Shown here: positions 42,170 to 43,860 of the stretch, one piece after another | Position numbering within the stretch: position 1 is the stretch's first letter | Layout of the letters: every line of letters starts with the position of its first letter | Sequence record: PZ386961.1 | From: a phage | Length of the DNA: 64,000 nt | Reading direction: 5' to 3' (one strand) | Made by a program: the position numbers and the translations under genes | The notes under the pieces: model-generated | The model's database searches: none | Told to the model about the DNA's origin: nothing | Seen by the model: the letters and a program-made list of their open reading frames with translations, nothing else

Positions 42170-42470
42170 CATCACTTAAGAGTCTTTTAAAAGGGTTTTT
42201 AAGTGATGTCCGGTCGGGTGAGGTAGGGTTAAGTATTGTCCGGTACGGTAGGGTAAAGTACGGTACGGTAAGGTAAAGTAGGGTATGGGTAGTTAGTCTC
42301 AGCTACATTAAAATGAGACTTACCTTTTTAAAAGGTCTTTAAAGAGGGTCTTTTAATGAGGTCTGGCGCGGTAGGGTCTGGTCTTGTCCGGTCGGGTATG
42401 GCATGGTGTTGTGAGGTATGGGTGGATGGTAGTAGCCACGTTAAAAATCTACCAAGTTTCTAAAGAGTCT
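42170..42470 (+). repeat. two about 130-bp units, each an AT-rich stem-loop followed by about 14 period-5 GG-containing pentamers
   Basis: Unit 1 from about 42170 (CACTTAAGAG...TTAAGTG hairpin then TCCGG TCGGG TGAGG...); unit 2 from about 42330 (TTAAAAG...CTTTTAA hairpin then GGTCT GGCGC GGTAG...). Confidence 0.7.
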
Positions 42471-42529
42471 TCTGTTGAGGGTTCTTTACAAACAACTTAA
42501 CAATCAACTAAAGTGTGGAGCTAAATGCT

Positions 42530-43117
42530 ATGAAACTGTTAAATATCAAAATCACTGGTACTCGTCCTTTCTTGAGCCATAACGATACGTTGTCAGACCC
42601 ATTAAACCCCCTGACAAAATATCACAAGTCTCTGTCAAGTAAACGTAAAAAGACTGACGAAGACTATGCGCTCTTAGCAGAAAGTCAACTGGTAACTTCT
42701 TGTTACTACGATGAGCAGCTAGGTTTTGTTATGAACGGTGAGATGATTGAGGCTTGTATCAAGTCTGGTGCAAAACTCAACAAACTTGGTAAGGTAATTG
42801 ACCGAGCCATTATGCTGACAGATGTAGTCTTCCAAATGACTATCAAGAACTGTCCAGCAAACCCACAAGAACTTGCTAAGAATCCAGACTTTATCTACGC
42901 TAAGTCTGTTAAGATTGGTACAGCACGAGTTATGAGCTACCGTCCAATCTTCCGTGACTGGTCTGTAGAGTTCGGTTTGATGTTCGATGAAGAGCAAATC
43001 ACCCGAGAGGAACTTCTGATGGTTCTGGAAAATGCTGGTAACCTTTGTGGTGTAGGTGATTGGCGTCCACGCTTTGGTCGTTTTTCTGTAGAAGTTATTT
43101 CAGAAGGCAACGTTTAA
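42530..43117 (+). CDS. hypothetical protein
   Basis: Track ORF 42515..43117 (GTG); start moved to ATG 42530, 9 nt downstream of GTGGAG RBS; flanked by repeat arrays. Confidence 0.5.
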
Positions 43118-43119
43118 TT

Positions 43120-43560
43120 ATGAATACAAAAGCATTAGCAGCAAAGTTTAGTTACGGTGACACTGTATCACACTCTGAGATGGACACCTTCTTAGGTATT
43201 GTGAAGCCAACTTATCAAGGTGACATTGTTAAGTACGAAGATGAAATGAAGGCTTATGCGCTTACACGTCTAAACCGACTTGAGAAGTTTATTGAGAAGC
43301 TTCTTAAAGAAGAGAAGATTTATCTGGTTGCTTCAATGGGTGTTGGTTATCGTGTGGTTGAACCTAAGCATCAAGCAACTATTGCAAAACGCAAAATGTC
43401 TGGTAAGATTGGTCGTGCTTTAAAGCAAGCCACTCAAGCGATTGAGAATGTGAACACTATGGCACTTAGTCATCAAGAACGTTCACGACTGATTGAACAG
43501 CAAAATCACTTAGCTGCTATGAAAGCTAATATTAACAAGCAACGCAGAAAACCTTTCTAA
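43120..43560 (+). CDS. hypothetical protein
   Basis: Track ORF 43060..43560; start moved to internal ATG at 43120 just after the upstream stop. Confidence 0.45.
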   Translation: MNTKALAAKFSYGDTVSHSEMDTFLGIVKPTYQGDIVKYEDEMKAYALTRLNRLEKFIEKLLKEEKIYLVASMGVGYRVVEPKHQATIAKRKMSGKIGRALKQATQAIENVNTMALSHQERSRLIEQQNHLAAMKANINKQRRKPF

Positions 43561-43571
43561 GTTGACTAGGT

Positions 43572-43594
43572 AGCCTCTTCGGAGGCTCCTTTTT
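43572..43594 (+). terminator. rho-independent terminator
   Basis: AGCCTC-TTCG-GAGGCT hairpin followed by CCTTTTT. Confidence 0.65.
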
Positions 43595-43595
43595 A

Positions 43596-43860
43596 AAAGG
43601 TCTTTAAAGAAGGTCTTTTAATAAGGTAAGGCACGGTTATGTCAGGTATGGTACGGTACGGTTAGGTAAGGTGAGGCGGAGTAAGGTATGGGTAGTTAAT
43701 CGGAGCTACATTAAAATTCGATTACATCACTTAAGAGTCTTTTAAGAGGGTTTTTAAGTGAGGTGTGGCACGGTAATGTTAGGTAGGGTCAGGTCAGGTC
43801 AGGTGAGGTAAGGTAAGGTGATGTATGGAAGGATGGCAGTAGCCTTATAAAAAATCTGCC
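43596..43860 (+). repeat. second pair of stem-loop + GG-pentamer array units (heads/tails recombined relative to 42170..42470)
   Basis: TTTTTAAAAGGTCTTTAAAGAAGG head then GGTAA GGCAC GGTTA...; CACTTAAGAGTC head then GGTGT GGCAC...GGTCA GGTCA GGTCA GGTGA GGTAA. Confidence 0.7.

Follow-up and report, generated by a model that had tools for sequence, protein, structure and literature searches.

A very probable type II VIPR locus in a Felix O1-like phage, with guide-RNA genes that match a satellite phage of Escherichia coli

VIPR systems, named for Viral Interference Programmable Repeat, consist of a RAMP-family protein, Vipr, an accessory gene, vap, and guide RNAs of ~100 nucleotides (nt), the vrRNAs, in which 9-16 YNNGG repeats precede a conserved 3' tail, folded into a pseudoknot in the SUSP1 clade (10.64898/2026.04.26.720920, 10.64898/2026.04.26.720927). 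One Vipr protomer sits on each repeat, and the resulting helical filament sequesters GGY and presents NN; the NN bases pair with double-stranded DNA, one target base being skipped per repeat, and transcription is repressed (10.64898/2026.04.26.720920, 10.64898/2026.04.26.720927). In the SUSP1 system vrRNAs co-purify with Vipr, and the guides of the SUSP1 clade are mostly aimed at a satellite phage in Escherichia coli genomes; reprogramming of NN showed that NN alone fixes the target, vap1 increases protection, the wobble position as the skipped base was given as a general rule, and the cut-off for an NN match was 80% (10.64898/2026.04.26.720920, 10.64898/2026.04.26.720927). Here, we describe a locus in a stretch of 64,000 nt from the sequence record PZ386961.1 (the window, below), which belongs to a Felix O1-like myovirus (Felixounavirus) and is 92-94% identical to wV8, SeKF_63 and others. 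The locus is very probably a complete type II VIPR system of the SUSP1 clade, and it is of an already known kind, described and experimentally characterised in the 2026 preprints.

According to the preprints, VIPR resembles Class 1 (Cas7-family) CRISPR-Cas in that a RAMP-fold protein oligomerises on a guide RNA with periodic base flip-out, in the RNA-guided recognition of invading DNA, and in the capping of a variable guide by a structured handle. The two differ in that VIPR has no CRISPR array, cas1/cas2, nuclease or known acquisition machinery, carries its guide information in 2 nt of every 5, reads the target with a 1-nt skip, and is encoded by a virus. Repeat searches of the window revealed no array of 25-40-nt direct repeats and spacers, and there was no match to a CRISPR direct-repeat family of Rfam.

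The two genes of the locus were identified by comparison with their SUSP1 counterparts. In a phmmer search against PDB sequences, the first open reading frame (ORF1) matched chain 36pp_D, "SUSP1 Vipr protein" (E 1.9e-126), with 189 of 195 residues identical (97%). It keeps all the RNA-contact residues cited for Vipr as touching GGY or the skipped base (H17, K33, E71, M72, R138, C173, D177, W178 and R179) and differs from SUSP1 Vipr by six substitutions (N18, Q102, P119, R159, V191 and I192). By its identity to the solved chain, ORF1 would have a minimal RAMP fold with an RRM core, a G-loop and a thumb. The ORF2 product is identical in 145 of 146 residues (99%) to that of vap1, the SUSP1 gene just downstream of vipr. 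Its structural model has a pLDDT (predicted local distance difference test) score of 68.5, and a Foldseek search with it against PDB gave no significant match; the best matches were winged-helix domains (E 0.16), which may weakly echo the predicted DNA-binding function of Vap1. Neither ORF was recognised by Pfam or PADLOC, PHROGs returned families of unknown function only, and a word-based search for vap1 homologues found near-identical copies only.

The similarity to the SUSP1 system extends beyond the amino acid identity of the two proteins. Both loci occupy the same genomic site, which is bordered by the DNA ligase gene on one side and the next early gene on the other; in the window this is the replication gene module, with ligase and polymerase genes on one side and dhfr and td genes on the other. 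The two loci have in common the promoters P1 and P2, the terminator, the heads (X and Y) and tails (A, B and B') of the repeat units, and the GGY/NN repeat code, and their guides are directed at one and the same E. coli satellite phage family. The differences are that the SUSP1 locus resides in a Suspvirus genome and the present one in a Felixounavirus, with flanking genes only 53-87% identical in nucleotide sequence, that SUSP1 has one vrRNA gene upstream and three downstream of the ORFs instead of two and two, and that the NN of the guides differ.

The first-pass annotation of this DNA, made from its letters alone, had noticed four repeat units around the two ORFs, with heads of two types and tails of two types in a different combination on each side, and this description is borne out by the sequence, in which there are two main types of tail. 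The units, of ~140 nt each and all on the + strand, lie at ~42170-42324, 42323-42453, 43588-43727 and 43725-43860, and each is composed of an A/T-rich head, 13-16 tandem NNGGY pentamers (16, 13, 14 and 14, in this order) and a 3' tail. Head X, CATCACTTAAGAGTC...TTAAGTGATG, folds into a 10-bp hairpin, and head Y reads CCTTTTTAAAAGGTCTTTAAAGA...; tail A contains AGCTACATTAAAAT, and tails B and B' have the form ...GTAGCC-N-AAAAATCT-CC. The order is XA-YB'-[ORF1-ORF2]-YA'-XB. Thus, the inversion of unit order around the ORFs that had also been proposed holds for the heads, which are mirrored, and fails for the tails, which run A then B on both sides. Within the window the head motifs are confined to this locus. 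Part of the arrays is labelled as a "DR_4" repeat in the wV8 record, and the KhF3 record has the label "possible binding site of StbAB".

Head X is probably a 5' processing or spacer element. In some phages, a 22-nt insertion, AATTATATTCGATAGAGTATCTCATA, is present in the hairpin loop of head X of a downstream vrRNA and leaves the stem intact (loci L003, 3794-3845; L010; L012; L014; L034, 4190-4250). A head-like motif, CTAAAGAGTCTTCTGTTGAGGGTTCTTTAC, is present also between the tail of vrRNA2 and vipr (42460-42489), and it looks as if vipr occupied the place where an array would stand behind a head.

When both strands of the window were scanned, in-phase GT with a period of 5 reached up to 12/12 at these four units only, so that chance is far from accounting for the arrays. 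As a comparative set we took 31 related loci, whose 94 distinct arrays comprise 1193 pentamers. The arrays are 9-19 pentamers long. Positions 1 and 2 of the pentamer are close to random, G occupies position 3 in 76% of cases and position 4 in 94%, and 99.3% of the pentamers have a pyrimidine at position 5; the conservation of GGY is equal in genomes with and without vipr. The pattern is one of purifying selection on GGY, with NN free or diversifying, and not one of microsatellite slippage. Two-quartet G-quadruplexes were rejected because conservation is higher for the pyrimidine at position 5 than for the first G.

The base composition of the arrays (41% G, 8% C) and their position in the replication module, downstream of a consensus promoter, would suit a replication origin of the R-loop type or an array of iterons, in which a strong promoter reads into a G-rich, C-poor non-template strand. 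However, the cumulative GC skew of the window turns at ~36 kb and ~47 kb, with gene orientation and elsewhere than the locus; the Mooglevirus Michonne is entirely devoid of units; G content is less conserved than the pyrimidine at position 5; and the NN positions encode matches to foreign DNA, as described below. The probability that the units are an origin of this kind is practically nil.

The tails provide a second signature of guide RNAs. The four tail classes align without gaps and can form a common H-type pseudoknot (columns 5-8 with 19-22 and 11-15 with 32-36). In a set of 19 distinct tails, pairing holds for 99.4% of cells, and both partners have changed in 8 of the 9 pairs, with the variation falling in the four tail classes only, so that few independent events are represented. 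None of 500 shuffles reached the observed score, and sliding the partner by 1-3 columns lowered the paired fraction to 30-42%. Scans for tRNAs were empty, the B/B' tail sequence was absent from a one-genome-per-species contig collection in two scans, and literature searches on Felix O1 repeats found generic mentions only.

When unit 2 was used as a blastn query, 153 of 5426 complete E. coli genomes were found to have a vrRNA with a B' tail. The satellite phage that carries it was delimited in E. coli EC12 as a ~12-kb element in yecE, with genes for a serine recombinase, a baseplate protein and a tape-measure protein, and without vipr; its vrRNA bears the same B' tail as vrRNA2, and its baseplate and tape-measure proteins are 75% and 31% identical to those encoded by window genes. 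We compared the NN positions of the four guides, under the published 1-nt-skip code, with one variant of the satellite (L032). The vrRNA1 guide matched at 28/32 NN (87.5%; 13163-13216, hypothetical coding sequence; shuffle maximum 24/36), the vrRNA2 guide at 20/26 (77%; 6742-6780, baseplate gene; shuffle maximum 19/26), with 20/22 (91%) in its central 11 repeats, the vrRNA3 guide at 25/28 (89%; 14597-14638, non-coding region; shuffle maximum 21/28), and the vrRNA4 guide at 23/28 (82%; 11655-11699, in the hypothetical coding sequence 11545-11874; shuffle maximum 22/30). Skips of 0, 2 or 3 nt all performed below the 1-nt skip, and the permutation z scores of the satellite matches were 5-9. Moreover, an exact 20-base gapped pattern derived from the vrRNA3 guide matched one IMG/VR contig. 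The same four guides scored 0.65-0.71 at best within the 64-kb window, which is the null level, indicating no self-targeting.

The vrRNA2 guide is of particular relevance in this respect, as the phage itself has a homologue of the satellite baseplate gene (56714-57478, - strand) that codes for an identical 16-residue peptide at the target site and differs synonymously. Since this guide reads codon positions 2-3, the satellite gene is distinguishable from the gene of the phage. This discrimination through wobble bases departs from the published generalisation that the wobble position is skipped. The JH2 allele of the baseplate homologue matches the vrRNA2 guide at 20/26.

Between three satellite loci the NN code of the satellite-encoded vrRNA is identical, with a difference in the pyrimidine of one repeat in L036. 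This vrRNA matches, at 23/28 NN (the maximum of 300 permutations was 20), a REP-like palindromic element beside torZ, in the E. coli cmoB-torZ intergenic region (L032, 19578-19619; L035, 16857). In satellite copies that are degenerate or disrupted by an insertion sequence (L035; L036, E. coli 2013C-4830, tonB-yciI region), the vrRNA gene is still intact, together with its promoter and terminator, and one of these copies lies at a second chromosomal site.

A conserved triplet recurring every ~5 nt, with one protein subunit bound per repeat, is known from TRAP on the trp leader RNA of Bacillus. TRAP forms a closed 11-mer ring, binds (G/U)AG, regulates in cis and has no guide function. The 5-nt period of the arrays with its conserved triplet and their 9-19 repeats recall such a leader, and in the VIPR mechanism, too, there is one protomer per 5 nt, as if the arrays were non-guiding decoy or sponge RNAs for a ring-shaped or oligomeric RNA-binding protein. 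However, the locus has no TRAP homologue, NN match satellite genes at 77-100%, and the published reprogramming shows that NN alone fixes the target, which makes a sponge extremely improbable. Several other candidates were superseded by the match of ORF1 to the SUSP1 Vipr structure: TRAP-like or CsrA/Hfq-type sponge RNAs, a motif pairing with tRNA CCA ends (GGU of RNase P L15 or of the T-box), anti-Shine-Dalgarno decoy arrays, arrayed recognition sites for primase, boxA-like antitermination elements within the heads, and the plasmid-partition site suggested by the KhF3 label.

For this locus, formation of the ribonucleoprotein, the skip rule, silencing and the enhancement by vap1 are taken from the preprints, and our own data concern protein identity, repeat grammar, pseudoknot covariation, target matches, the lack of self-targeting, and the signatures of presence/absence and horizontal transfer. 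Some observations speak against the assignment of the locus to VIPR. Expression of vrRNAs, their binding by Vipr and repression were demonstrated for SUSP1 only, and this phage is judged by its sequence. The vrRNA3 and vrRNA4 genes lie 3' of the terminator, and a consensus scan detected no promoter of their own. No Rfam family matched the units at the gathering threshold, and so the identity of these RNAs rests on the preprints and on covariation. Additionally, the full-length match of the vrRNA2 guide on the one satellite variant examined falls below the 80% cut-off of the preprints, and the base skipped by vrRNA2 and by vrRNA4 falls, in the annotated frames, elsewhere than on the codon wobble position. 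Despite these points, we consider a complete VIPR locus very probable.

If so, the locus would act as follows. Transcription from P1 would yield the guides vrRNA1 and vrRNA2 and then vipr and vap1, with vrRNA3 and vrRNA4 beyond the terminator; it is presumed here that P1 drives transcription, that the RNAs are processed at the heads, and that vrRNA3 and vrRNA4 are expressed. A mature vrRNA would consist of 13-16 YNNGG repeats capped by the 3' pseudoknot. Vipr protomers would load on it, one per repeat, into a helical filament that hides each GGY and exposes NN, and the exposed NN would pair with double-stranded DNA, every third target base being skipped, in an R-loop triplex that blocks transcription. 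With all four guides programmed against the ~12-kb satellite phage integrated in E. coli chromosomes, the locus would be an anti-satellite weapon. The features of the locus are listed in Table 1.

Table 1. Features of the putative VIPR locus in the window, including the sites in it that guides of vipr-less relatives are predicted to match
Feature	Coordinates	Strand	Basis or remark
Putative promoter P1, TTGACA-16-TATACT	42112..42139	+	consensus scan, 11/12 matches
Head X of vrRNA1, 10-bp hairpin, 19-nt loop, stem CATCACTTAA/TTAAGTGATG	42170..42208	+	inverted-repeat search
vrRNA1: 16 YNNGG repeats (42210-42289), type A pseudoknotted tail (42285-42324)	42210..42324	+	
Head Y of vrRNA2, with 13-nt GGTCTTTWAAAGA sub-repeats	42323..42357	+	
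vrRNA2: 13 repeats (42358-42422), type B' pseudoknotted tail (42418-42453)	42358..42453	+	
Predicted anti-vipr target site, vrRNA2 tail	42407-42445	+	CECAV-type guide, 24/26
vipr leader: head-like motif, GGAG ribosome-binding site	42454..42529	+	
ORF1, vipr, 195 amino acids, RAMP-family protein	42530..43117	+	match to PDB 36pp
Predicted anti-vipr target site	42530-42559	-	ESCO49- and JH2-type guides, 19/20 and 17/18
Predicted anti-vipr target site	42628-42654	+	
Predicted anti-vipr target site	42997-43026	+	Felix O1-type guide, 18/20; mismatch is K159R
ORF2, vap1, 146 amino acids, VIPR accessory protein	43120..43560	+	match to SUSP1 vap1
Intrinsic terminator 3' of vap1; U-tract runs into head Y of vrRNA3	43572..43594	+	
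vrRNA3 gene: head Y (43588-43622), 14 repeats (43623-43692), tail A' (43688-43727)	43588..43727	+	
vrRNA4 gene: head X (43725-43763), 14 repeats (43760-43829), tail B (43825-43860)	43725..43860	+	
Putative promoter P2 of downstream early genes, right boundary of the module	43880..43908	+	consensus scan

P1 is kept upstream of the first unit in every Felixounavirus, Suspvirus and Moogle locus examined, and the terminator after vap1 is kept in all cassette-bearing loci examined. An inverted repeat, GGTGAGTA...TACTCACC, extends from the -10 element of P1 to ~+30 (42128-42167) in all the loci seen; it is a possible operator or 5' structure of the RNA. Around the -35 element of P2, at 43861-43907, there is a 19-nt inverted repeat (89% complementary) followed by a T-run, which may be a terminator-like hairpin that ends transcription of vrRNA4 and overlaps the next promoter.

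The comparison of the locus with those of relatives, which had been proposed as a check of the first-pass annotation, revealed that it is polymorphic. The interval between P1 and P2 contains one unit (X-B), two units (XA-YB), or the two ORFs with one to three units on each side, and genomes lacking vipr retain one or two units at the same site. By tblastn, vipr of at least 90% identity is present in 118 Ounavirinae records, as compared with 231 records with units; about half of the Felix O1-like phages carry vipr-vap1, and among Salmonella phages 75 have units and 17 have vipr. In nucleotide sequence, vipr and vap1 of the window are 94-97.5% identical to those of the SUSP1 and Moogle phages, in contrast to 84-87% for ligase and 53-69% for the three genes directly downstream of the module. 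That the cassette is far more alike across Felixounavirus, Suspvirus and Mooglevirus than its flanks indicates horizontal exchange. In support of that, the Mooglevirus Michonne has an empty site without units and with a single promoter in place of the P1 and P2 of VIPR-bearing genomes, while the congeneric Moogle carries the module; together with the identity across genera, this indicates that the unit of exchange is a module bounded by P1 and P2. The suggestion that the two genes may be an exchangeable accessory module is therefore supported.

The same cannot be said of the explanation given for the repeats, namely that heads and tails had been swapped and that the cassette is bounded by repeat modules which have recombined. 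In all the loci examined the units obey one positional grammar: tail A is internal and tail B or B' closes a tandem set, and head X comes after P1 and head Y after the terminator. This constancy is not explained by a single crossover within the pentamer arrays. A broader version of the idea is that the units, as substrates or scars of recombination, do no more than mark the ends of a mobile two-gene cassette and are functionless in themselves. It is true that they flank the cassette, that the cassette has been exchanged between genera, and that the vipr-less arrangements can be derived through recombination between like heads; each of them is what one recombination between like heads of flanking units would leave. 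However, scars would not be expected to show strict GGY with free NN over 94 arrays, a covarying pseudoknot in the tails, or satellite matches under one specific skip rule, and such RNAs were reported to co-purify with Vipr. As the sole explanation, scars are already refuted, and we regard units without a function of their own as very improbable. The units are best read as the guide-RNA genes of a VIPR system and not as passive boundaries.

The retention of units in vipr-less relatives led to a further observation when the guides of 21 vipr-less phages were compared with 20 VIPR cassettes and four satellite loci. In 12 of 12 single-unit vipr-less phages (loci L004, L005, L009, L016, L023, L037, L045-L047, L049, L051 and L052) the solitary guide matches the vipr coding sequence, at four sites and with 83-100% of NN. 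Codons 157-166 are matched in sense by guides of Felix O1, Si3, ST11, mio, phiWec177, Ro111lw and S.Kent (19-20/20), codons 13-22 in antisense by those of EC6 and JN01 (15-16/16), the start codon in antisense by those of JH2 and ESCO49 (17/18 and 19/20, respectively), and codons 33-42 in sense by that of L016 (15/18). The exact 20-base gapped pattern of the Felix O1 guide occurred in four IMG/VR contigs only, in all of them inside vipr, and the guide variants CT and TT follow the CTG and TTG alleles of Leu163. The two-unit vipr-less phages have anti-satellite guides (up to 31/34 and 18/18), and in two of them, CECAV_041 and MBP4696116, a guide matches the B' tail DNA just upstream of vipr (24/26). 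None of the guides of vipr-carrying genomes matches phage sequence (z < 3.2). The complete 87.7-kb genome of JH2 contains one array only, and no vipr or vap1 homologue was found in it. Anti-vipr guides are mentioned neither in the two VIPR preprints nor in the other literature searched.

The window itself contains predicted target sites of such guides (Table 1). The EC6-type guide has no match in it because the window carries the N18 allele, and at R159 the codon change from AAA to CGA alters both paired bases. Thus, two of the six Vipr differences (N18 and R159) fall inside target sites that cover ~20 of 195 codons, a coincidence that does not reach statistical significance; these two may be escape changes. 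It is quite possible, though we hold it only tentatively, that the VIPR locus of the window is a target as well, with solitary "anti-VIPR" guides loading on the Vipr of a competitor in co-infection and turning it against its own gene. Alternatively, the anti-vipr guides may be fossils of a self-targeting that drove the loss of the cassette. Many solitary arrays are common to vipr-carrying genomes, so they could have been derived recently.

Elsewhere in the window, among minus-strand genes, a 27-nt tandem repeat (2.7 copies, 80% matches) is present at 50663-50734. As its length is a multiple of 3, it is probably an in-frame repeat inside a coding sequence.

In VIPR, DNA is recognised under RNA guidance in a mode that was described only recently and was proposed to be ancestral to CRISPR. 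What is incremental here is the population genetics of the locus in Felix O1-like phages, the formal covariation of the pseudoknot, the wobble-based discrimination between satellite and self at one target, and the anti-vipr guides. With the assignment of the locus to VIPR, a function is given to two "hypothetical" genes and to the "DR_4" repeat, annotated in Felix O1-like genomes since 2009, among them those of phages for typing and biocontrol, and the satellite phage that Felix O1-like phages fight is identified. The cassette moves between phage genera and is often lost via the repeats of its own guide genes. If the anti-vipr guides are functional, they would represent a natural case in which an RNA-guided system is parasitised or sabotaged by guides alone, and would correspond, at the RNA level, to anti-CRISPRs.

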